Shown here in pieces: positions 14,222-42,642 of a DNA stretch of 64,000 bases. Numbering within the stretch: the stretch's first letter is position 1; every line of letters starts with the position of its first letter. The stretch spans positions 4,128,001 through 4,192,000 of the forward strand of contig OZ220744.1 in the NCBI GenBank assembly GCA_965116925.1, read 5' to 3'. The notes under the pieces are model-generated. The model saw only the letters and a program-made list of their open reading frames with translations. It was not told where the DNA came from and did not search any database. The position numbers were made by a program, and so were the translations under genes. This DNA comes from Candidatus Poribacteria bacterium. Its GTDB lineage: Bacteria; Poribacteria; WGA-4E; PCPOR2b.

Positions 14222-15439
14222 CTACTCTATAATTTCCGTTACAACTCCCATGCCAATCTTTACTTCCATCTTCTTGATCTCGAACCGCGTGCCGATTGCT
14301 AGTGCCATCGGCACATCAAGCGAAATTTGCACGGTTGCATGTTCACCCGGATTGATAATCGCAACCTCCGACGAAAGATGGAGATGACCTGTAACGTCAA
14401 TTGTCCAGAGATGGATCTCCGGCTTATCATTCCCAACAAGGGGGATATGCGTTCCACACTCCTCTTGGGTCATCACGTAAACCGCCGCCACAAATTCGGT
14501 GTGCGACTTGATGCTCTTCGGTTGTGAAACAACCTGCCCCGGCGTAATCCACCCCATTTCCGCATCGACTCGGACCTCATCTTCTGTATTTTTACCCGCT
14601 TCATCACGGTTCACGCCAATCGAGGAGGCGGCGTCGGCGTGTCGCAGACCAACGCAGCGAGTCTTAATCCGATCCCCTTTGCCGACGACATCAATCGGGT
14701 GCCCCACCGCTAGACCGCCCTGAGCCATCTCACCGTACAGTGTCGAGGTGCCTTTGGGGCTGTCAATAACCTTACGGATCGGCATCAGCAAAGGCAATTC
14801 AAGTGAATTCAGCGGCTGCGGCATGCAACGATTCATCGCGAAGATGAGATCGACAATCGGTTTCCAGTGATCCGAATTAAGATTTTGTCCCTTATAGTTA
14901 CAGGCTTTCTCCGCGTCGCCAACGATGATGGGTGACTCTTCTTCCGCATAACCGCAATCCGTAAGGATCTCACGGATCTCCATCTCGCAAATCTCGATTA
15001 ATTCTAGATCCTTGACCTTCTCTGCCTTGTTCAGGAAGGTGACAACCGTGGGGACACGAACTTGACTAGCGAGCCGAATCTCGGCTTCTGCTTCTGCCGT
15101 TACACCTTCGACTGCGCTCACCACCAAAATCGCGCCACGAATCCCCGGCGAATCACCGATCAACATCTTGACGTTATCTCCATGACTCATGCCATCAAGA
15201 TGTGTGTAATGTCTACCACTTGTCTCATAATCAACCGCTTTATAACTGACGTAAGTCTGTAATCCTATTGAGTGATGCGTTGGTTGCTGCGCTTCAAAAT
15301 CATCCGCATCCATCTGGGTAGAGCCAATCCGTGAAACCACCTTGATTATTCCGGCAGCCAGCATCGTTTTACCGTGTCCCACCCCGCCAAGTGTGCAGAT
15401 TGTCAACCCTTGATGTCGGTATTGCCTTTTTTCATCCAT
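14222..15439 (-). CDS. Divergent EF-Tu-like protein with degenerate G motifs
   Basis: Colinear with EF-Tu (GHGKT, YET..RHYTH.D, GAILVVSA, FLNK, DVTG, G.GVVTEIIE); start MDEK after GAGGGG SD. Confidence 0.85.
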   Translation of the reverse strand: MDEKRQYRHQGLTICTLGGVGHGKTMLAAGIIKVVSRIGSTQMDADDFEAQQPTHHSIGLQTYVSYKAVDYETSGRHYTHLDGMSHGDNVKMLIGDSPGIRGAILVVSAVEGVTAEAEAEIRLASQVRVPTVVTFLNKAEKVKDLELIEICEMEIREILTDCGYAEEESPIIVGDAEKACNYKGQNLNSDHWKPIVDLIFAMNRCMPQPLNSLELPLLMPIRKVIDSPKGTSTLYGEMAQGGLAVGHPIDVVGKGDRIKTRCVGLRHADAASSIGVNRDEAGKNTEDEVRVDAEMGWITPGQVVSQPKSIKSHTEFVAAVYVMTQEECGTHIPLVGNDKPEIHLWTIDVTGHLHLSSEVAIINPGEHATVQISLDVPMALAIGTRFEIKKMEVKIGMGVVTEIIE

Positions 15440-15907
15440 CGCTTTCCCCTCTGACAGAAATTCTGTGAACTCACTGCCCACCTACTCACTGCTCCAGATT
15501 GAAGATTGGATTGAAAGATGGTATTTGGTATTTTACCATAGAGGAGAGGGCAGAGTCCATCAAAAGAAAAATGGGGTGCGGTGGATCATTAGAGAATTCA
15601 CCTAGATTTGTAGTAGTCTACACGGTAGCAGACACTTAGTGCCTATGCTGCTTGACACTGGCTAAAGCCTCGGCACCCGGCGAAATTTTACTTGCGAACC
15701 TGATACTCGCCTACCGTCACCCCAGCTATGACAGAATTAATCCAGATTTAATGAAAAAACTTGAGAACTCCTAGTGGGAATTTGTGTCTATAATTATAAC
15801 TATACTTGTGCTTATATCGTAATATGAGTAATGTGATCGCATTCGGGGCATTTAGTTTTCAGTTTTTTAACCGATTTTGACGGATAGATAGCAGATTGAC
15901 TCCTACA

Positions 15908-17134: not shown

Positions 17135-17423
17135 CCACCACTATCACTAAAACTGTCCGGTGTTAAGAAAAACCTCACCGGTACGCTGAATTCAATTACC
17201 ATCAGATGCAATTTGAGTCCATAAAAATATCTGTATTACCGCTATTTTGTCCTGCTAAATTTGTCTTGATACACATAAATCATAGAACCCATGCAGCCAA
17301 CTGTAGGCGGGGTATCTGGTTTCCCCGCACCACTTATGCTGAAATCTGTAATCCTGAATCATAGCTTTGTTGTTACATACAGATCAACGTCTTAATTCGT
17401 CAACACGCCCTAGGAGATTGATT

Positions 17424-19661
17424 ATGCCAACGGATCGAAATCTTATTCATCAAACGCTCAAAGGCAATCTACGGGCTTTCGACACCTTGGTCCAGAAATA
17501 TCAGCCGGTGGTCTATGCCCGGGCGCGGCTTATCGTACAAAATCCGCACGATGCCGAAGATCTAACGCAAGAAGTCTTTATCAAAGCGTATCAAAATCTT
17601 CCAAAACTGCGCGATGCCAGTCGGTTCGCCGGTTGGCTATCGCGAATTGTGAAGAATGTCTGCGTGACATGGATCCACCAGCAGAAGGAAATATCAAAAT
17701 CTTGCCCGATAGACGCGGATCCAATTGCGAGTCTGTCTGCTGCTGAGGCGACGCCGGAACAATTCCTGATGAAAAAAGAGTTGAACCAGACAATCCTGAA
17801 GGCAATTAATTCACTGCCTGCTGTGGATGGGGCGGTCGCGCACGATTTCTACATTGACCACCTCAGCTATGATGAAATCTCAGAGGAACACGGATTGTCG
17901 CATCGTGCCATCGCTAGTCGACTGCATCGCGCCAAACAACGCATCGCTCAGAAAGTCAAGCATTCGTTCAGCGCGTTTGGTATTTTCTGGAAGGATTGGG
18001 GAACATCCATGCTAAAGGGGACGAAAATTATGTCAACCCTTTCGCGTGCTTGGTCTATCTCTTTCGCAATTCACCTCGGTTTTGCTAGTGTCATTGGAAG
18101 TGTCATTGGAGGGTATTTGGTAACACAGAACCAATCATTCAAGGAGTTGACAGGCGTTGAAATCCCTCAAACAGTGAATACGCCGCCCAAACCGCAAGTT
18201 CAGAAACCCGTCATCAAACTCGTTCAAAAGCCGGAGGTGCCAATTGAAAGCACGGTCACCGTTGAACCGGTTAAAGTCCAACAAAGAACGATGAATATGG
18301 CCATGATTGGGGCAAGTACTGTCCAACCGCAGACCATCTCCGCGTTCTCAAATCAAGCCTTGAAACTTAATGCCCCCCTCAACCCCAATGTGCCGGAGGT
18401 GGTCGACCCCAATGCACCTATGCCTCAGAGTGTAGCACCTACGGATGACCCCGCTTCTAATGCACCCGACGCGCTAACATTGTCTTCACCCGTCGTCATA
18501 GGCACAGGTAAAAACGGTGATCGCGTGAGCCGTGGGGTTGCTGGTTCTGGGGGTATTGGCACAGACAGTGGTAGCGGCGTTGAGCGTGGTGATTTCAGTT
18601 TAGGAAATGATGTGAATCAGGCCCGTACCAGAGGTCATGTTGGCATAGGTTCATTGGTAGGCACCCAAGGGGCAACTAACATTGATGACACGCTTTCCAA
18701 TGTCACCGAGAAGGTAGTATTGGGCGGGGGTGTGCCTGAACTTCCATCTGGAAGCCCCGGTGCTATTGTTGTGGGGCGTGGTCTAGATATGATGGGCCGC
18801 TTAAACCTTGCCCGCTTTGAAAATCCGCTTCACCCCTTTGGAGTTGTATGTGGCAGCGGCGTCGGATATTTCCGATTTGGGGCAGGTTTGTCCTATTTAG
18901 TACAATCACTGAATCAAAAGACTAAAATCAAGACCCAACTTGTTGAGGCAGTCCAACTCAAGGATGCGGCACTCTTTCAGACACCGATTCTTTTTATGGA
19001 ACCGATGCCCGGCGGCTCAAAGATAAGTTCAGAACACGAGAAGGAACTGTTCTACTCTCATGGCAATCCAATATGGAATACTGCGCGTAGTAAATACACG
19101 GATGCTGAAGTCCAAAGACTACGGGAGTATGTGATTAATCGTGGGGGATTCGTTTATATAGCGACGCATGGAAATACAGATAACGCAATGAAAGGGACAA
19201 GAAAGGTGTTGCGGGACCTCCTGCCAGAGCATCAACTTGGTCTTATTCCCAATGATCACCCGATTTACAACAGTTATTACTCGCTAAATGGTCCTTTGCG
19301 TTTTCCGCTGCGCAAGATCGGAGCTTTCGGAGCTACCATCTCTCTTCACTTTGGTCCTTACTCCGAGCTACAAGGTATCACGATTGATGGTCGTCTTGCT
19401 GTCTTGGTTGATACCGAGCAGATGATGCATGTGATCGATGGCAAAGTTCAGAAACCCTTCTACGGCAAGTTCCAAAATCAGAATCAGATTTTAGAGGAAT
19501 TTGCCCCCCACGCGGCGCGGCACATGATTAACATTGTGGTCTATGCCATCACACATGGGAATATTTCAGATTACTCCGGTTATGTGCCAGCAGATAAGCG
19601 AGAGCAGCAAAGATTTCCAACCCGTGCGCCGCAAGCCGCAGCAATTAGAGCGGTTGAATAA
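17424..19661 (+). CDS. ECF sigma factor fused to TM, Pro/Gly-rich linker and DUF4159-like domain (Cys form)
   Basis: DAEDLTQEVF, F.GWL.RI and SY.EI...SRLHRA sigma-2/4 motifs; C-terminal domain highly similar to the paralogs at 20059 and 42642; AGGAG SD. Confidence 0.88.
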   Translation: MPTDRNLIHQTLKGNLRAFDTLVQKYQPVVYARARLIVQNPHDAEDLTQEVFIKAYQNLPKLRDASRFAGWLSRIVKNVCVTWIHQQKEISKSCPIDADPIASLSAAEATPEQFLMKKELNQTILKAINSLPAVDGAVAHDFYIDHLSYDEISEEHGLSHRAIASRLHRAKQRIAQKVKHSFSAFGIFWKDWGTSMLKGTKIMSTLSRAWSISFAIHLGFASVIGSVIGGYLVTQNQSFKELTGVEIPQTVNTPPKPQVQKPVIKLVQKPEVPIESTVTVEPVKVQQRTMNMAMIGASTVQPQTISAFSNQALKLNAPLNPNVPEVVDPNAPMPQSVAPTDDPASNAPDALTLSSPVVIGTGKNGDRVSRGVAGSGGIGTDSGSGVERGDFSLGNDVNQARTRGHVGIGSLVGTQGATNIDDTLSNVTEKVVLGGGVPELPSGSPGAIVVGRGLDMMGRLNLARFENPLHPFGVVCGSGVGYFRFGAGLSYLVQSLNQKTKIKTQLVEAVQLKDAALFQTPILFMEPMPGGSKISSEHEKELFYSHGNPIWNTARSKYTDAEVQRLREYVINRGGFVYIATHGNTDNAMKGTRKVLRDLLPEHQLGLIPNDHPIYNSYYSLNGPLRFPLRKIGAFGATISLHFGPYSELQGITIDGRLAVLVDTEQMMHVIDGKVQKPFYGKFQNQNQILEEFAPHAARHMINIVVYAITHGNISDYSGYVPADKREQQRFPTRAPQAAAIRAVE

Positions 19662-19690: not shown

Positions 19691-20006
19691 TATAGTGAAT
19701 TCTAAAAATAATAGGACTTACGCACTTCAGTAGGGAACGCAGATCTGCGTTCCCTACGAACCCCTTATGGAATCTCTGTTGTAGTTACCCGATTCATCGG
19801 GCGTTGGGACGAGTGTGCAGAGGCGATAAATCGCCGAACTACAAAACGTTGAGCATTCAACTGCGTAACTCCTAAATAAATAAACATTTTCGCCCCTCGG
19901 TTTCGATCCCCCCGATAAATCGGGGTAAACTAATTATCGGGGCCGGTAGGTGCGGTTTTCAATCGCACCGGTTTGGAGTGTCTCAATAATTCTAAATCGG
20001 ACTTTA
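19691..20006 (-). mobile_element. Family B miniature element (degenerate) carrying a nested family A copy
   Basis: Ends match the reverse complement of the 45286 and 59250 elements (TATAGTGAATTC...; ...GTGTCTCAATAATTCTAAA). Confidence 0.7.
19712..19874 (+). mobile_element. 163-bp miniature element family A, copy 2
   Basis: TIR TAGGACTTACGCA...TGCGTAACTCCTA; AATAA direct repeat on both sides. Confidence 0.85.
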
Positions 20007-20058: not shown

Positions 20059-21669
20059 ATGAAATCTCACCACAAGTACCGCTTCTGGTTCGTTTCTGTA
20101 TTGGTCCATTTATGCCTTGCGATTGTCTTCAGTGTCGCCATCATCAATCAAACGACTCCGAGTGATGTTGATACTTTAGAAGTGAGTATTCTACAAGTTA
20201 AACCGGTGCCGCTTGTAAAGAAAACACCCCGTATAGAGGCACCTATTGTCACGCCGACACCAGTGCCTAAGTTTCAAATTGAACCTCAGTCAACGTCAGT
20301 ACAGACCCGAACGCTCACAACCCGTCAGGTGAGATCTACGTCCGTATCTGTACCGAAAGCCGCAGCGGTGGATGCCCCGGTATCTCAGTCTCCGGCACAA
20401 TCTGTGCGTGCAGAAATTTCTGTCCAAAGCGCATCTCAGGTCAATGACCGTCCCGCTCAATCACTTGCCACTGCTGTTGATCTCCCTGTTCAGTCGGATG
20501 CCCCGTTAGCGGCAGGATTGAGCGAGGGGAGTTCGCTCTCTGGCGCAGGCAGTCTTGGCGGAGGTAGTGGTAGTGGGGTTGGACGGGGTTCCTTCGGTTT
20601 AGGAGGTGGTGTGAGCCAAACCCCGACTAGAGGAGGAACGGGTTTAAGTTCGCTGGTCGGTGCTGAAGGCGCGTCTAACATAGACGACACACTTGCCAAC
20701 GTTACCGAAAAGGTAACGCTAGGGGGTGGTGTGCCTGAGCTTCCTGCTGGCAGTCCTGGTGCTATAGTTGTGGGTCGCGGTCGAGATATCATGGGTCGCT
20801 TAAACCTTGCTCGTTTTGAAGATCCGCTTCACCCAAGCGCAGATATATGAGGCAGCGGCGTCGGAAATTTCCGATTTGGGGCAGGTCTGTCCTATTTAGT
20901 ACAATCACTGAATCAAAAGACTAAAATCAAGACCCAACTTGTTGAAGCGGTCCACCTGAAAGATGCATCGTTCTTTCAGACACCGATTCTTTTTATGGAA
21001 CCGATACCCGGCGGCTCAAAGGTAACTCCAGAACATCGGAAGAGAGTGTACAATTCCCACAGGATTCCGATCTGGAATACTGCGCGTCCGGGTGGATTAA
21101 GTAAGTACACTGACGCTGAAGTCCAAAGATTGCGAGAATATGTGATCAATCGTGGCGGATTCCTCTATCTAGCAACGCACGGGAATGCGGATAACGCAAT
21201 GAAAGGGACAAGAAAGGTGCTGCGGGACCTCCTGCCAGAGCATCACCTCGGCTTTGTTCCAAATGATCACTCGATTTACAACGCCTATTACTCGCTAAAC
21301 GGTCCTTTGCGTTTTCCCCTGCGCACTATTGGGACTATCGGACATCTCATCCCTCTTCACTTTGGTCCCTATTCCGAATTGCAAGGTATCACGATTGATG
21401 GTCGTCTTGCTGTGTTAGTAGATACCGAGCAGATGATGCATGTGATTGATGGCAAAGTTCAAAGACCTTTCTACGGCAAGTTCCAAAATCAGAATCAGAT
21501 TTTAGAGGAGTTTGCACCCCACGCGGCGCGGCACCTAATCAATGTTGTCGTTTATGCTATCACACATGGGAACATTTCGGATTATAGCAACTACGTTCCT
21601 GAAACACTTAAAAACTCTGGTGATGATAGTTATCGTAAAAAAGCCCCAGTTGTCACACAGAAATTGTAA
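20059..21669 (+). CDS. Membrane-anchored DUF4159-like protein, probable selenoprotein (Sec codon TGA 20848-20850, codon 264 of 536)
   Basis: AAGGAGG SD; the two ORF-track halves share a frame and are joined by 48 open codons; the TGA aligns with Cys in the 17424 paralog. Confidence 0.85.
20851..20894 (+). promoter_or_regulatory. Candidate bacterial SECIS element
   Basis: TGGGGCAG-GT-CTGTCCTA hairpin with apical GU about 35 nt after the UGA, preceded by a TCGGAAATTTCCGA palindrome. Confidence 0.7.
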
Positions 21670-21801: not shown

Positions 21802-23484
21802 ATGATGAATTTAATCCGTTATACTTATCCCATTTTTTTTGGTGTATTTCTGTTCGCCTTTTTTATCGGTTGTGGTGATGATGATGACGAGGTTGTTGAC
21901 GTAGGTCCTGCGGTCGTATCAACGCCGGAGGGCGTGGTCAAAGGTACGATTGTAGATTTGGTAACAGAGCAGGGGATTGCGGGCATCCAAGTGACGTTGT
22001 CGTCGTCGAAAAAGTTACCGGGGGGAGATTTTGAACAGGAATCGATAGCGTCAGTCACGACGGATGGGAGTGGCAACTTCGTATTTGGCGAGTTGAAATC
22101 AGGCGAATATATAGTGAAGCTGAATGCCCCGGGTTACTTGGACCAACAAGCGTCGGTAACGGTGACACGTAAAGAGTCAGCGACGGTTCATTTTCGCCTT
22201 GAACCGGGTGTGAGGTTTAAGGGTACAGTCGTATCGGACGATGGAAATGCAGTCTCCAATGTTCTCATCACTCTGGGTGACCGTGCGTCGGTGACCAAGG
22301 GTGGTGGTCAATATGAGATATCGCCTGTATCGAAGGGCGTGTACAACTTGACAGCGGAAAAGCCGGGTTATCAGACGACGCATATACCGGGTCTAGTTGT
22401 AGGTGATAATGATATTTCCCAAAAGGTCACGATTCGTCGTCAAGTAAGGGGTCAGATAGTTTTCGCTCGTGGTGATGTAGCGGGCAAGGACTTTTTTGGT
22501 ATTTCAGTGATAAATGCGGACCGTACGGGTGAGAAGCCGCTGACGCACCTATTCGACGTTAATCCGTCGTGGTCGCCGGGTGGCAATGAAATAGTGTTTA
22601 GTCGTTCAGAAGCCAACCGTCCGTTCCAAATCTATATAATGGACAGCGGTGGTGGGAACGCCAGACCCATCAGTGGGGATCACTTCAATGATAGACATCC
22701 AGCGTGGTCACCCGATGGTCGTCGTCTAGCGTTTGTTCATGCACGTGCGTTGGGTCAACCTGCGGTTTACACGATGGATTCAAATGGAGACAATCGTGTT
22801 CGTCTTGCGGATTGCCATGCGGATTCCCGTCCAGCGTGGTCACCCGACGGTAGTCAGCTTATCTATAACCATGCGCTTAAGGAAGGGATTCGTAATCTTT
22901 TTGTGTTGGACATAGAGACATTTCTCGCCGCCAAGGAGGCACCTCCTACCCAAGTCATACCAGAACCGGAACCAGAACCGGAACCAGAGATAGTGCCGGA
23001 ACCAGAACCAGACCCTGAACCAGAGGTAGAACAAAAGCCGGAACCGGAGCCAGACCCGCATCAAACGCCGGATGGGGAGAAAGATAAACAGGAAGGTGAG
23101 GGTGATCCGCCTCAAGCACCGAGTGCCGATCCACCAGCCATAGAAGAGGGTATTCACCGTTTGACAACGAGTACGCACCACGATATCCACCCGGATTGGA
23201 GTCCAGATGGTTCAAAATTGGTGTTTACCAAGGAGAGTGCGCCGCTGAACGCTGCGGTGTATGTTCTGGATCTGTTTTCGCTGGTTCAGACCCGGTTGAC
23301 GGGTGAGGAGGGTTACAACGGGTATCCGTGTTGGTCTACCGATGGGACAAAGATAATCTTCAGCAGTAACCGCAACGGTAGTTTGGGTATCTGGATGATG
23401 GATGCCGATGGTAGTAATACCGCCCTTATTTTTGATGAATTGGGACAGGATGATATTATCAGCCAGCAGGCATGGCGTGAGTAA
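21802..23484 (+). CDS. Lipoprotein with carboxypeptidase-regulatory-like domains, TolB-like PD40 propeller and (PE)n insert, copy 1
   Basis: Lipobox FFIGC; G.V.D..T and APGY/KPGY beta-sandwich motifs; PxWSPDG repeats. Confidence 0.88.
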   Translation: MMNLIRYTYPIFFGVFLFAFFIGCGDDDDEVVDVGPAVVSTPEGVVKGTIVDLVTEQGIAGIQVTLSSSKKLPGGDFEQESIASVTTDGSGNFVFGELKSGEYIVKLNAPGYLDQQASVTVTRKESATVHFRLEPGVRFKGTVVSDDGNAVSNVLITLGDRASVTKGGGQYEISPVSKGVYNLTAEKPGYQTTHIPGLVVGDNDISQKVTIRRQVRGQIVFARGDVAGKDFFGISVINADRTGEKPLTHLFDVNPSWSPGGNEIVFSRSEANRPFQIYIMDSGGGNARPISGDHFNDRHPAWSPDGRRLAFVHARALGQPAVYTMDSNGDNRVRLADCHADSRPAWSPDGSQLIYNHALKEGIRNLFVLDIETFLAAKEAPPTQVIPEPEPEPEPEIVPEPEPDPEPEVEQKPEPEPDPHQTPDGEKDKQEGEGDPPQAPSADPPAIEEGIHRLTTSTHHDIHPDWSPDGSKLVFTKESAPLNAAVYVLDLFSLVQTRLTGEEGYNGYPCWSTDGTKIIFSSNRNGSLGIWMMDADGSNTALIFDELGQDDIISQQAWRE

Positions 23485-37300: not shown

Positions 37301-38842
37301 CTATTCAACCGCTCCAATTGCTGCGGCTTGCGGCGCACGAGTTGGGATTCTTTGCTGCGCTTGCTTATCTGCCGGCACATAGCCGGAGTAATCTGAAATT
37401 TGACCGTGCGTTAGTGCATAGATGGCAACATTGGTCATAAAACGGTAGACGCCGGGCGAGTAGCGCACCCGACGGCTTGGCAGACTGATTGACTCCATCG
37501 CACACATATAGTCTCGACGAATGATCAGCACAGAAAGTTTGTCGCCGATAAAAATGCCTTCAAGAAAATTCCGTGATAGATTATAAGCAGGGCGTCCACT
37601 CGTTAAAAAAAAACCGATTGTCCTACCGGGATGGTAAATGTCAAAGCCGATGGGTGGTCCACCCATCTGATAGAAGTTGTGATAAATTTCATGGCTGTTG
37701 GGGATACGTCCCACATGATATTCTGGCATGATGTGCCGCATATTAGTCAGAAATAGACGGGTCATTGATTGGTCAGCAGCATGGGTACCACAGTCATCAA
37801 AAATGAGGAACCCTTCTTTTTCAACCAGATAGCGCCGCAACGAGACCGCTTCTAATCGAGAGAATTGACTACTCTTGATACTGCGAAGCATTCGCCCGGT
37901 GTCCAATGCTCTTACACCTTTTGCTTTAGTAAGAGCGGGATTATGTCCAGTCATGACGAGAATCGGTGATTTCATCACATTGGCGTCAGTCAACTTTAGT
38001 GCTCCGCCCTCGACGTTCATGTCTGTTTTAATTTTCGTCCGTTCGTTCAACCACTTTGCCCACGCGTTCAACGAAGACGCATCTGCCCACCAATCAGAGA
38101 GGTCATGGCGAAGGCGCGTAAAACGAAAGATCCCACGAATATCACGACCTCTACCAACAACGCGGCCTCCCGGCTCGCCGCGGGGCAGGGGTGGCACTTC
38201 AAGATTACCAAGCATAACGCCATCAACTACCCCGTCCAAGGCGTCCCCGATGGCTCCAACCTCCTTGACCATCGCAAGTTCCAACGGCAACTTGAACCCA
38301 TCAGTGATCCTGACCTGCACAGTCCCCCCAGACGACATTCCACGACCACTGCCTCCAATCCCACGACTCATGCGCCCACCATTTTTACCTGTGCCTATGA
38401 CGACAAATGAAGATAATGCCAGCGCATCAGAAATAGGGGCATCTGTATGTGTTACGCCCTTAGGAATAAGTGTATTGGAGACCACTTTTGGCACATTGGG
38501 GTTGAGGGGGGCATTAAGTTTCAAGGCTTGATTTGAAAACGTGGAGACGGTCTGCGGTTGGACAGTGGCTGTACGAACGCCAGCCGCATTTGTCGTTCTC
38601 GGTTGGGTTTTAACCGGTTCAACGATGACCGTGTTTTTGACTGGCACCTCTGGCTTTTGAACGGGTTTGATGACGGGTTTCCGAACTTGGGGTTTGGGTG
38701 GCGGATTCGCTGGTTGCAAAACTTCAATGCCTATCAAATCCTTAAATGATTGGGTTTGTGTTACTAGATACCCTCCAATAATAGCAGCAAGACACAGATG
38801 GATTGCTAAAGAGATAAACCAAGAACGCGAAACGGTGGACAT
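37301..38842 (-). CDS. Membrane-anchored DUF4159-like protein (DW/TGH/DDC type)
   Basis: N-terminal TM and Pro-rich linker; SDWWAD, P.LVMTGH, GFLIFDDCG, HEIYH.FY and LEGI motifs. Confidence 0.8.
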   Translation of the reverse strand: MSTVSRSWFISLAIHLCLAAIIGGYLVTQTQSFKDLIGIEVLQPANPPPKPQVRKPVIKPVQKPEVPVKNTVIVEPVKTQPRTTNAAGVRTATVQPQTVSTFSNQALKLNAPLNPNVPKVVSNTLIPKGVTHTDAPISDALALSSFVVIGTGKNGGRMSRGIGGSGRGMSSGGTVQVRITDGFKLPLELAMVKEVGAIGDALDGVVDGVMLGNLEVPPLPRGEPGGRVVGRGRDIRGIFRFTRLRHDLSDWWADASSLNAWAKWLNERTKIKTDMNVEGGALKLTDANVMKSPILVMTGHNPALTKAKGVRALDTGRMLRSIKSSQFSRLEAVSLRRYLVEKEGFLIFDDCGTHAADQSMTRLFLTNMRHIMPEYHVGRIPNSHEIYHNFYQMGGPPIGFDIYHPGRTIGFFLTSGRPAYNLSRNFLEGIFIGDKLSVLIIRRDYMCAMESISLPSRRVRYSPGVYRFMTNVAIYALTHGQISDYSGYVPADKQAQQRIPTRAPQAAAIGAVE

Positions 38843-39023: not shown

Positions 39024-40706
39024 TCATTCACGCCATGCCTGCTGGCTGATAATATCATCCTGCCCCAATTCATCGAAAATAAGGGCTGTATTGCTACCGT
39101 CGGCATCCATCATCCAGATACCCAAACTACCGTTGCGGTCACTGCTGAAGATTATCTTCGTCCCATCGGTAGACCAACACGGATACCCGTTGTAACCGAC
39201 CTCGCCCGTCAGGCGGGTTTGAACCAGCGAAAACAGATCTAGAACATACACCGCAGCGTTCAGCGGCGCGCTTTCCTTGGTAAACACCAATTTCGACCCG
39301 TCTGGACTCCAATCCGGGTGGATATCGTGGTGTGCACTAATTGTCAAACGTTGAATCCCTTCTTCGAGTGCTGGTGGATCGGCACTCGGTGCTTGGGGTG
39401 GGTCACCTTCACCTTCCTGTTTATCTTGCTCATCATCCGGCGTTTGATGAGGATCCGGCTCCGGTTCCGGCTTTTGGGGTGGGTCCGGTTCCGGCTCAGG
39501 CTCCGGTTCCGGCTCTGCTTCGGGTTCCGGTTCCGGCTCCGGTTCTGGTATGACTTGTGTTGGCGGTGCCTCCTTGGCGGCGAGAAATGTCTCAATATCC
39601 ACCACAAAAAGATTTCGTATCCCTTCGTTCAGAGCATGGTTATAGACGAGTTGAGTCCCATCGGGCGACCACGCAGGTCGAGAATCTGCGTGGCAGTCGG
39701 AAAGCCTGACACGATTGTCTCCGTTCACATTCATAGTGTAAATTGCAGGTTGACCCAACGCACGCGCATGAACAAATGCTAGACGACGACCATCGGGTGA
39801 CCACGCTGGATGACGATCATTAAAATGGTCTCCGCTGAGTGGCATCGCATTACCACCACGATTATCCATAATATAGATTTGTAGCGGACGATTGTTTTCT
39901 GAACGACTGAACGCTATTTCCATACCGTTAGGGGACCACGACGGGTTGACATCAAACACATGGGTCAACGCCTTTTCTCCATTCCGATCCGCGTTAATCA
40001 CTGAAATACCAAAAAAGTCATTACCCGCTACATTGCCACGCGCAAAAACTATCTGACCCCTTACTTGACGACGAATCGTGACCTTTTGGGAAATATCATT
40101 ATCACCTACAACTAGACCCGGTATATGCGTCGTCTGATAACCCGGCTTTTCCGCTGTCAAGTTGTACACGCCCTTCGATACAGGCGATATCTCATATTGA
40201 CCACCACCCTTGGTCACCGACGCACGGTCACCCAGAGTGATGAGAACATTGGAAACTGCATTGCCATCGTCCGATACCACTGTACCCTTAAACCTCACAC
40301 CCGGTTCAAGGCGAAAATGAACCGTCGCTGACTCTTTACGCGTCACCGTTACCGACGCTTGCTGGTCCAAGTAACCGGGCGCATAGATCTGTATTATATA
40401 GTCACCCGCTTTCAGTTCGCCAAAAAGGAAGTTACCACTCCCATCCGTCGTGACTGACGCTATCGATTCCTGTTCAAAATCTCCCCCCGGCAACTTTTTC
40501 GACGACGACAACGTCACTTGGATACCCCCAATCCCTTGCTCCGTTACCAAGTCTACAATCGTACCTTTGACCACGCCCTCCGGCGTTGATACTACCACAG
40601 GACCTACATCTACAACATCATCTTCGTCATCTCCACAACCTAATAAAAATAAAAATAGCGTCAAAGCAACAAAGCTGAAATAGGCGTAACGGATTAGGTT
40701 CGACAT
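39024..40706 (-). CDS. TolB-like PD40 lipoprotein, copy 2
   Basis: Lipobox LLGC; highly similar to 21802; start MSNLIRY. Confidence 0.88.
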   Translation of the reverse strand: MSNLIRYAYFSFVALTLFLFLLGCGDDEDDVVDVGPVVVSTPEGVVKGTIVDLVTEQGIGGIQVTLSSSKKLPGGDFEQESIASVTTDGSGNFLFGELKAGDYIIQIYAPGYLDQQASVTVTRKESATVHFRLEPGVRFKGTVVSDDGNAVSNVLITLGDRASVTKGGGQYEISPVSKGVYNLTAEKPGYQTTHIPGLVVGDNDISQKVTIRRQVRGQIVFARGNVAGNDFFGISVINADRNGEKALTHVFDVNPSWSPNGMEIAFSRSENNRPLQIYIMDNRGGNAMPLSGDHFNDRHPAWSPDGRRLAFVHARALGQPAIYTMNVNGDNRVRLSDCHADSRPAWSPDGTQLVYNHALNEGIRNLFVVDIETFLAAKEAPPTQVIPEPEPEPEPEAEPEPEPEPEPDPPQKPEPEPDPHQTPDDEQDKQEGEGDPPQAPSADPPALEEGIQRLTISAHHDIHPDWSPDGSKLVFTKESAPLNAAVYVLDLFSLVQTRLTGEVGYNGYPCWSTDGTKIIFSSDRNGSLGIWMMDADGSNTALIFDELGQDDIISQQAWRE

Positions 40707-40852
40707 AAAAATTCGTGGAATATATTTATCCGACAGGAATCGATAAACAACCACTTCCTCCTTTCAAAATTTGCCCGCTGACAAAATGCAAGGTTAAATC
40801 TTCATGAGATGATAGCGGAAGACAGTTCAAAAAACAAAGAAATTAATCGTGC

Positions 40853-41015
40853 TAGGACTCACGCAATTGAACGGTCAAAGCCCTGTAGTTCGGCGATTCA
40901 TCGCCGCTGGACACCGTTGCCAACGCCCGATGAATCGGGCAACTACAGCAGAGGCTCCATAAGGAGTCCGTAGGGAACGCAGATCTGCGTTCCCTACGGA
41001 AGTGCGTAACTCCTA
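40853..41015 (-). mobile_element. 163-bp miniature element family A, copy 3
   Basis: Same TIRs and hairpins in reverse orientation; no clear TSD. Confidence 0.85.
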
Positions 41016-41022
41016 CAGAAAT

Positions 41023-42642
41023 TTACAATTTCTGTATGACAACTGGTGCTTTTTTACGATAACTATCATCACCAGAGTTTTTAAGTGTTTCGGGAACGTA
41101 GTTGCTATAATCCGAAATATTCCCATGGGTGATGGCATAGACCACAATGTTAATCATGTGCCGCGCCGCGTGGGGTGCAAATTCTTCTAGGACTTGATTT
41201 TGATTGTACAAGTGACCATAGAACGGTTTCTGAACTTTGCCATCGATCACATGCATCATCTGCTCGGTATCTACTAACACAGCAAGACGACCATCAATCG
41301 TGATACCTTGCAATTCGGAATAGGGACCAAAGTGAAGGGGGATGGTTATTCCGCCATACACGACATGCCGCAAGGGAAAACGCAAAGGACCGTTTAGCGA
41401 GTAATAGGTGTTGTAAACCGGGTGATCATTCGGAACAAAGCCAAGTGGATGCTCTGGCAGGAGATCTCGCAGCACCTTTCTTGTCCCTTTCAATGCGTTA
41501 TCTGTATTTCCATGCGTTGCTAGATAGAGGAATCCGCCACGATTGATTACATATTCTCGCAATCTTTGGACTTCAACATCAGTGTATTTACTCAATCCGC
41601 TCGGACGCCTCGTATTCCAGATCGGAATGCTGTGGGAATTGAATACCCGCTTCTTGTGTTCTGGACTTATCCGTGAGCCACCTGATACCGGTTCCATAAA
41701 AAGAATCGGCGTCTGAAAGAACGATGCATCCTTCAGGTGGACCGCTTCAACAAGTTGGGTCTTGATTTTAGTCTTTTGATTCAGTGATTGTACTAAATAG
41801 GACAGACCTGCCCCAAATCGGAAATTTCCGACTCCACTGTTTCATATATCTGCGCTTGGGTGAAGCGGATCTTCAAAACGAGCAAGGTTTAAGCGACCCA
41901 TGATATCTCGACCGCGACCCACAATTATAGCACCAGGACTGCCAGCAGGAAGTTCAGGCACTTCTCCTCCTAGCGTTACTTTGTCGGCGACATTGGCAAG
42001 TGTATCGTCGATGTTAGACGCGCCTTCAGCACCGACCAGCGAACCGAGACCCGTGCCTCCTCTGGTCGGGGTTTGGCTCACACCACCTCCTAAACCGAAG
42101 GAACCCCGCCCAACACCGCTACCACTACCTTCGCCAAGACTGCCTGTGCCGGAAAGCGAACTGTTTCCGCTCAGTCCCGCAGCTAACGGGGCATCCGACT
42201 GAACCGGGAGATCAACAGCAGTGGCAAGTGAGTGGGCGGGACGGTCATTGGCGCGAAAAGATTGAGAAGCCCCTTGGACAGAAATTTCTGCACGCACAGA
42301 TTGTGCCGGAGACTGAGATACCGGGGCATCCACCGCTGTGGCTTTCGGCACAGATACAGAAGTTGATTTCACCGGATGGGGTGTAAAAGCCCGGGTCTGT
42401 ACCGATGCTGACAGACGCTCGATTTGAAAATTAGGCGTGGGCGTAGGTACGATGGAAGGGGCTACTATGCGTGGGGTTTTCTCCACAGGCGGCACCGGTT
42501 TAACTTTGAGAATGCTCACTTCTAAAGCATCGACATCGCTCCGAATAGTTTGGTTGACGATGATAACGCTGAGAACCATCGCTAGGCATAGATGGACCAA
42601 TAGAGAAACGCACCAGAAACGGTACTTGTAATGAGATTTCAT
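41023..42642 (-). CDS. Membrane-anchored DUF4159-like protein, probable selenoprotein (TGA at 41844-41842, codon 267 of 539)
   Basis: Same SD and start as 20059; HPSADI-TGA-NSGVGNFRF in frame with 41023..41697. Confidence 0.85.
41798..41841 (-). promoter_or_regulatory. Candidate bacterial SECIS element
   Basis: Hairpins identical to those in 20851-20894. Confidence 0.7.

Follow-up and report, generated by a model that had tools for sequence, protein, structure and literature searches.

An in-frame TGA followed by two adjacent hairpins in DUF4159-type genes of Candidatus Poribacteria: a probable selenocysteine codon and its probable insertion element

Introduction

Does the TGA triplet that interrupts a membrane-protein gene of Candidatus Poribacteria encode selenocysteine (Sec), and which part of the RNA that follows would direct its decoding? 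The gene in question (copy A) lies in a stretch of 64,000 nucleotides (nt), positions 4,128,001 to 4,192,000 of contig OZ220744.1 (assembly GCA_965116925.1), which is referred to here as the window. A paralog on the opposite strand (copy C) holds one TGA as well, and a third gene (copy B) has a cysteine (Cys) codon at the aligned position. An earlier note on this DNA had proposed that a hairpin downstream of both TGAs is a functional selenocysteine insertion sequence (SECIS) of the kind found in Escherichia coli fdhF, that this hairpin is weakened in the Cys paralog, and that the Cys copy descends from a Sec copy. From the analysis described below we conclude with considerable confidence that the TGAs at 20848 and 41844 encode Sec and that the RNA downstream of them is a bacterial SECIS, which would recruit SelB through the second of two neighboring hairpins (HP2), with the first (HP1) as its probable spacer.

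Results

The genome has the machinery for selenocysteine decoding

The Sec machinery is present in the 6.47-Mb genome. The selA gene (607 bits) and a full-length selB (genome 2374138-2376030; 373 bits, with a cut-off of 242) lie side by side, tRNA-Sec adjoins them, and selD carries an in-frame TGA of its own. Other selenoproteins were sought with a scan that required an in-frame TGA, coding character on both sides (by lenient scores) and a downstream hairpin, followed by a Pfam search; the scan was not exhaustive, and its hairpin filter demanded a perfect stem, a loop starting between +16 and +45 (the U of UGA is +1 throughout) and a G in the first two loop positions. At least eight further genes have a Pfam domain that spans the TGA: an FdhA-like molybdopterin oxidoreductase, three AhpC/TSA proteins, an HMA-domain protein with the sequence GMTUGGC, and one protein each of the thioredoxin-like (WUGSC), AhpD-like (CRYU) and ThiF/rhodanese types. 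In these eight genes and in selD there is one hairpin each, and its loop begins between +20 and +30. The comparison with the organism's own selenoprotein genes, which the earlier note had recommended, reveals a common loop beginning: G and then G or U in all of these elements, the G being a position that the scan itself required, and the same in the genes of the window. Their loop starts at +37, the farthest of the 10 elements found in the genome.

Two other open reading frames with a TGA are less credible candidates. One belongs to the Uma2 family (genome 985011-985565, +) and has the TGA inside its Pfam domain followed by a weak hairpin; it is an unconvincing selenoprotein and may be a pseudogene or a chance match. 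The other, of the PhyH family, is doubtful and looks like a false positive or a broken gene.

Two neighboring hairpins follow the TGA

The motif GGGGCAGGTCTGTCC occurs at 20878-20892 (+) and at 41814-41800 (-), in each case 3' of the in-frame TGA, while the variant GGGGCAGGTTTGTCC is found at 18879-18893, 3' of the TGT codon (18849-18851) of copy B. The palindrome TCGGAAATTTCCGA occupies 20861-20874. The sequence confirms three observations of the earlier note: the motif is identical after both TGAs, a palindrome precedes it, and the CTG>TTG change of the Cys paralog is synonymous. The window holds three matches to the motif, compared with 0.25 expected, and none of 100 shuffled sequences reached three; this excess arises because the genes are paralogs. 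The note was equally right about the fdhF apex and its shorter distance from the UGA. The gene of E. coli K-12 (NC_000913.3), in which the Sec codon is codon 140, reads GCAGGTCTGC, and GCAGGTCTG begins at +19 in it versus +34 here, an offset of exactly 15 nt.

ViennaRNA predicts two neighboring hairpins 3' of the TGA. HP1 has 8-9 base pairs (bp) in copy C and in many relatives, in which it abuts HP2, and the gap between the hairpins is 0-1 nt in every fold, including the RNAalifold consensus. HP2 consists of a 4-nt GGUC loop, closed by the pair A36-U41, on a stem of 6-7 bp, both in the minimum-free-energy (MFE) folds and in the RNAalifold consensus. This fold does not agree with the earlier proposal that the C>T change of the Cys paralog converts an apical G-C pair into G-U. 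As the GGUC loop is closed by A36-U41, C40 is a loop residue and C40U is a change within the tetraloop; a 2-nt apical loop is disallowed by the folding energy model.

The claim that the hairpin is weakened in the Cys copy therefore has to be divided. Stability does not bear it out, as HP2 alone folds at -6.9 kcal/mol in the Sec and Cys copies of the window alike (-9.4 kcal/mol in variants with C43); what the Cys homologs have lost is constraint on the sequence, as described below. The 35-nt core made of both hairpins folds at -13.5 kcal/mol in copy A and -14.2 kcal/mol in copy B, with z-scores against shuffled sequences of -2.7 and -3.6, respectively. Over 50 nt the z-scores are -1.2 (A), -2.08 (C, -15.7 kcal/mol) and -1.6 (B). 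Thermodynamics by itself is non-decisive, and the signal that rises above chance is conservation across genomes.

Conservation is tied to the UGA codon

A search of 176 genomes of the phylum (E ≤ 1e-60) listed 103 matches, of which 85 contain a single TGA, 15 are free of stops over their full length and three are fragments. At least one TGA copy is found in 75 of the 176 genomes, from two taxonomic families, and these include genomes with a single copy. These numbers bear on one alternative, that the TGA is a true stop in split or decaying genes whose nucleotides are conserved through recent duplication or gene conversion. Public gene calls would agree with it: in a large protein collection all 33 full-length relatives that bear the motif have Cys and none is a full-length Sec form, and paralogs within one genome do exchange sequence. 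Yet a single TGA stands in the same column in those 85 listed matches, across both families and also in genomes that have only one copy. The frame of copy A is open across the TGA when this is translated as U, conservation extends to either side of it, and the protein is predicted to fold across it. Decay, moreover, would neither freeze synonymous sites only beside TGA nor release them beside TGT or TGC, which is the pattern documented next. We consider a true stop extremely improbable.

The codon and its flanks were compared in 80 loci plus the window (tblastn, at least 55% identity over 106 aa), which reduced to 60 Sec and 14 Cys sequences when identical rows were merged. Both the TGA and the hairpin are kept in all 60 unique UGA-bearing homologs, which is the conservation that the earlier note had asked for. 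Positions +31 to +42 and +44 to +46 are invariant in all 60; position +43 has C in 34 sequences and U in the other 26, either of which pairs with G34. The HP1 stem, UCGG/CCGA, is present in 59 of the 60, position +13 is A or G, either of which pairs with U28, and the HP1 loop is variable and has no conserved G. A search with the exact 23-nt motif gave at least 80 stretches in species-representative genomes, 78 from entries titled Poribacteria and two from "uncultured bacterium"; the codon located 22 nt 5' of the motif, among the 80 matches listed, is TGA in 76, TGT in three and TGC in one.

Rates of change were obtained as parsimony steps on a protein tree in which the U/C column was masked (59 Sec rows and 14 Cys rows). 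The 16 sites of HP2 account for one step among the Sec rows and 11 steps, or 0.69 per site, among the Cys rows. The flanks show 4.62 and 0.91 steps per site over all positions, and 9.84 and 1.82 at third positions, in Sec and Cys rows respectively. The sole HP2 step of the Sec rows is the U43/C43 exchange, which retains the pair with G34, whereas C40U arose three times among the Cys rows. HP2 in the Cys homologs thus changes at about the rate of its flanks, and constraint on the sequence is gone from the Cys copies taken together. Codon usage for the triplets concerned is even (CGA.17, GGG.22, GCA.29, GGT.28, CTG.21), so codon bias does not account for the invariance.

The codon immediately 5' of the UGA (window 20842-20850) is AUA, the rarest of the isoleucine codons (0.13 usage). 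It is kept in all 46 Sec rows that have isoleucine at this place, with no synonymous step, and the GAU codon before it shows one step. This synonymous freeze indicates that constraint reaches about 6 nt upstream of the UGA.

A frozen stretch of 35 nt could also be another cis-acting element, such as a small-RNA target, an attenuator, a protein-binding site or a recombination site, that happens to coincide with the UGA. The lack of covariation and of an Rfam match (see below) would fit such an element, as would the fact that paralogs A and B resemble each other most in just this stretch (0.95-0.98 identity). The constraint follows the codon, however, being present with TGA and relaxed with TGT or TGC; the loop combines the apex letters of fdhF with the G-G/U signature that marks bacterial SECIS elements, and its position falls inside the SECIS distance range given in a 2026 review of prokaryotic selenoproteomes (PMC13188914). 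A coincidental element is, in our judgment, very unlikely. The Sec machinery, the conservation pattern and its link to the UGA are observed. Together with the TGA and hairpin of all 60 homologs, and synonymous sites that are frozen in Sec and relaxed in Cys sequences, they argue that the element is, as the earlier note supposed, very probably a functional SECIS.

Predicted roles of HP1 and HP2

The two hairpins differ in what is conserved. In HP2 both stem and loop are frozen and the loop has the G-G/U signature, for which reason we assign to it the role of the sequence-specific hairpin that would bind SelB and so recruit SelB with Sec-tRNA(Sec). HP1 appears to be purely structural, constrained in its stem alone. 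It begins 7-9 nt after the UGA, close to the position of the minimal fdhF hairpin, whose upper stem-loop begins 11 nt after the UGA according to the review PMC8659212. As a compact spacer, or as a platform for stacking, HP1 could make the path from the UGA to the HP2 loop effectively shorter and so bring this loop, which lies 33 nt away in sequence, within reach of ribosome-bound SelB. We infer from sequence comparison both that HP2 binds SelB and that HP1 is a spacer; the second proposal is plausible.

Several observations weigh against the assignment of a two-hairpin SECIS. The stability of copy A over 50 nt is unremarkable, since 23 of 200 shuffled sequences fold equally well. The bSECISearch consensus, as summarized in PMC13188914, calls for a loop of 3-9 nt with G in its first two positions and then G/U, an upper stem of 4-16 bp, a spacing of 16-37 nt and an MFE of at most -7.5 kcal/mol; HP2 alone, at -6.9 kcal/mol in the window copies, is above this limit, and the C43 variants (-9.4 kcal/mol) and the core of both hairpins (-13.5 kcal/mol) are below it. 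Rfam gave no match at gathering thresholds for the whole window or at E ≤ 10 for 20780-20960. Compensatory double changes were seen in none of 13 pairs (RNAalifold and pair counts), and the pairing frequency of 95.8%, although above the 32-52% of slid controls, did not exceed the shuffle control. The structure consequently rests on synonymous-site invariance linked to the UGA, not on covariation. For HP1 in particular, its stem is intact in all 14 Cys copies (two steps versus about five expected, a comparison of low power), so that its constraint is not demonstrably specific to Sec, and the consensus range takes in the 33-nt spacing as it stands.

The two points on HP1 speak for another model, in which HP2 alone is the complete SECIS and the HP1 stem serves mRNA stability, pausing for membrane targeting, or a protein constraint on the peptide V/I-G-x-F/L-R-F; the use of single hairpins by the other selenoprotein genes of this genome speaks for it as well. 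The third positions provide a counterargument. Those within the HP1 stem (+15, +24 and +27) took 1, 1 and 0 steps in the Sec clade, compared with 9.84 expected per third position (Cys rows: 1, 1 and 0), while +18, in the outermost HP1 pair on the loop side, and +21, in the loop, vary freely with 9 and 7 steps (Cys rows: 3 and 0). A stem that is frozen at its third positions and free on the loop side is the pattern of an RNA stem and not of a constraint on the peptide. Also contrary to a self-sufficient HP2 are the direct contact of the hairpins, with the gap of 0-1 nt in all folds, and the offset of the apex from that of fdhF, whose 15 nt are about the length of HP1. We regard HP2 acting alone as a real possibility, if one that we incline against, and retain the two-hairpin element with HP1 as its probable spacer.

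The encoded protein and its fold

The proteins of copies A, C and B score 63.3, 65.0 and 71.8 bits against PF13709 (DUF4159), for which the gathering cut-off is 25.9. The match is partial, covering profile positions 63/64-201 of 202. Copy C is 86% identical to copy A and contains one TGA, aligned to that of copy A. The AlphaFold2 model of the domain (predicted local distance difference test, pLDDT, of 78; predicted template-modeling score of 0.82) found PDB 4i66 (Hoch_4089) as its top Foldseek match, with E = 8.7e-10 and a target template-modeling score of 0.70; weaker matches are ThuA-like and class I amidotransferase-like folds. The model places the Sec residue after the second strand and before the first helix, in a loop of pLDDT <50, and the domain of the Sec copy has no other Cys. 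A short basic N-terminus and one transmembrane helix probably leave the C-terminal domain on the extracytoplasmic side (N-in, C-out).

Copy B differs by an N-terminal extracytoplasmic-function (ECF) sigma factor, made of Sigma70_r2/r4, ahead of the transmembrane helix; its probable start is the ATG at 17424. The fusion is consistent with the N-in topology. Proteins of 720-744 aa with this fusion recur in about 28 public protein clusters and suggest a transmembrane sigma factor in a single polypeptide.

Searches for precedents gave the following. No NCBIfam family, selenoprotein models included, matched the protein at E ≤ 0.01. A text search of the 2026 review (PMC13188914), covering its main text and table, did not find PF13709. 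In our literature search DUF4159 and selenoprotein never appeared together, DUF4159 being found only in the Pfam paper, and selenocysteine in Poribacteria was not linked to the DUF4159 family. This is apparently an uncatalogued, Poribacteria-restricted family of DUF4159 selenoproteins.

History of the Sec and Cys paralogs

On whether the Cys copy arose from a Sec copy, as had been proposed, the evidence is divided and does not uphold the proposal as made. In a quick IQ-TREE phylogeny of 85 rows, rooted on the distant paralogs that have Trp at the Sec/Cys column (the outgroup branch measures about 2 changes per site), the sigma-fused Cys forms are a basal grade and the Sec clade is nested inside it, with one TGC pair within the Sec clade. 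A Sec-ancestral root, placed on a distant Sec clade that was picked after the tree had been viewed, is nevertheless not rejected (approximately unbiased test, p 0.299). Taxonomy favors Sec first, given that Sec forms occur in two families and Cys forms in one genus only.

Gene conversion between the paralogs blurs this history. Copies A and B are 0.95-0.98 identical over +1 to +88, and in some patches the A-B identity exceeds that of A and C. In a relative (G014), the gene L036:847-3087 is a sigma-fused paralog with a TGA and both hairpins; its ends are B-like, and its middle, from about -330 to +300 around the codon, is A-like. Such a mosaic is consistent with the joint transfer of Sec codon and SECIS in one gene-conversion tract.

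Features of the window and of the genome

Coordinates are collected in Table 1. Counting genome-wide and with the distant paralog of the window, there are about nine further DUF4159 paralogs, with about 27-34% identity and Trp at the Sec/Cys column, and the family is strongly expanded in the Poribacteria phylum. At 14222-15481 (-) the window encodes a GTPase of 419 aa that resembles EF-Tu (GTP_EFTU and domain 3) and is neither the main EF-Tu nor SelB; it might be CysN-like or another translational GTPase. A perfect palindrome, GTAGGGAACGCAGATCTGCGTTCCCTAC, is located at 19731-19758 (+), 3' of copy B, and at about 40970-40997 (-), 3' of copy C. Roughly 100 nt of similar sequence trails both copies of it, and a similar palindrome exists near genome position 4296071. 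These palindromes look like a family of repeats resembling repetitive extragenic palindromes or terminators.

Table 1. Positions of the genes, codons and hairpins discussed in the text (window coordinates unless marked as genome).
Feature	Position	Strand	Description
Copy A, predicted Sec form	20059-21669	+	536 aa, U264; N-terminal transmembrane helix, low-complexity linker, DUF4159-like domain
In-frame TGA, copy A	20848-20850	+	Column is TGT/TGC in paralogs
HP1, copy A	20860-20875 (+13 to +28)	+	GUCGGA-AAUU-UCCGAU
HP2, copy A	20877-20894 (+30 to +47)	+	UGGGGCA-GGUC-UGUCCUA; loop 20884-20887 (+37 to +40)
Copy C, predicted Sec form	41023-42642	-	539 aa; transmembrane helix and DUF4159 paralog
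In-frame TGA, copy C	41842-41844	-	Aligned to the TGA of copy A
HP1 and HP2, copy C	41798-41834	-	HP1 of 8 bp (+11 to +30) touching HP2 (+31 to +46); GGUC loop 41808-41805
Copy B, Cys paralog	17367-19661	+	Single open frame: ECF sigma factor, transmembrane helix, linker, DUF4159 domain
HP1 and HP2 counterparts, copy B	18861-18895	+	Same fold; loop GGUU (C>U at 18888)
Downstream partner gene of copy A	21802-23484	+	CarboxypepD_reg and PD40 beta-propeller protein (Pfam)
Downstream partner gene of copy C	39024-40754	-	CarboxypepD_reg and PD40 beta-propeller protein (Pfam)
Distant DUF4159 paralog	37301-38842	-	About 34% identity; Trp at the aligned Sec/Cys column; without the hairpins
TGAs of the eight other genes and SelD	Genome 2541663(-), 4721121(-), 996697(+), 2098070(+), 519567(-), 5526204(-), 4704821(-), 3981055(-), 6018658(+)		

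Discussion

The element is very probably functional and an ordinary kind of SECIS in an unusual layout, with two hairpins and a long spacing. The single Sec residue points to where DUF4159-type proteins probably have their active or sensing site, and it is the residue to start from in their study. In public gene calls these genes are broken at the TGA, and the proteomes of these sponge symbionts are for this reason systematically wrong at this point. The two-hairpin layout, with an apex 15 nt beyond that of fdhF, offers a natural test of the distance and geometry between SECIS and UGA, a question that bears on the engineering of Sec insertion. The Sec and Cys paralogs and the mosaic gene illustrate how the Sec codon and its signal can move jointly between paralogs.

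A bolder synthesis, which we hold to be rather unlikely in its entirety, would join these elements as follows. The SECIS would be bipartite: a spacer hairpin free of sequence requirements, at the site of the minimal fdhF element, would present a stacked SelB hairpin 15 nt further out. The proteins would be the first family of selenoproteins to have the DUF4159 (amidotransferase-like) fold, membrane-anchored and probably extracytoplasmic, with Cys paralogs fused to an ECF sigma factor. Because of this fusion, the Sec/Cys loop could be the sensing residue of a transmembrane signaling device contained in one polypeptide.

Comparison with known proteins and elements places these proposals in context. 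The protein resembles Hoch_4089 and the DUF4159 family in its PF13709 score above the cut-off and in the fold match to 4i66; it differs in the place of the Sec/Cys loop, which is N-terminal within the domain and outside the PF13709 match. The RNA shares with fdhF an intragenic hairpin 3' of the UGA, an apex of 9 identical nt, GCAGGUCUG, with its GGUC loop, and an identical codon register (GCA GGU CUG). The loop G and U of fdhF are contacts of SelB, as reported in PMC8659212. The upper stem of fdhF has a bulged U in its fold, whereas the HP2 stem is continuous; HP2 also has no lower stem that pairs with the nucleotides right after the UGA, and begins 26-27 nt after it, the proximal position of the minimal fdhF element (as described in that same review) being occupied by HP1. 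With respect to the consensus bacterial SECIS as summarized in PMC13188914, the 4-nt loop, the stem of 6-7 bp and the loop sequence GGUC are all within the model, and the spacing of 33 nt (+4 to +36) is inside the range at its far end; the model is one stem-loop, and here two are adjacent. Within the same genome a similar element occurs in the FdhA-like gene (TGA 2541663, -), which has a GGUCU loop on a G+C-rich stem of 7 bp over Ala-Gly-Leu codons, and differs from the DUF4159 element in a loop that starts at +22 and in a single long hairpin.

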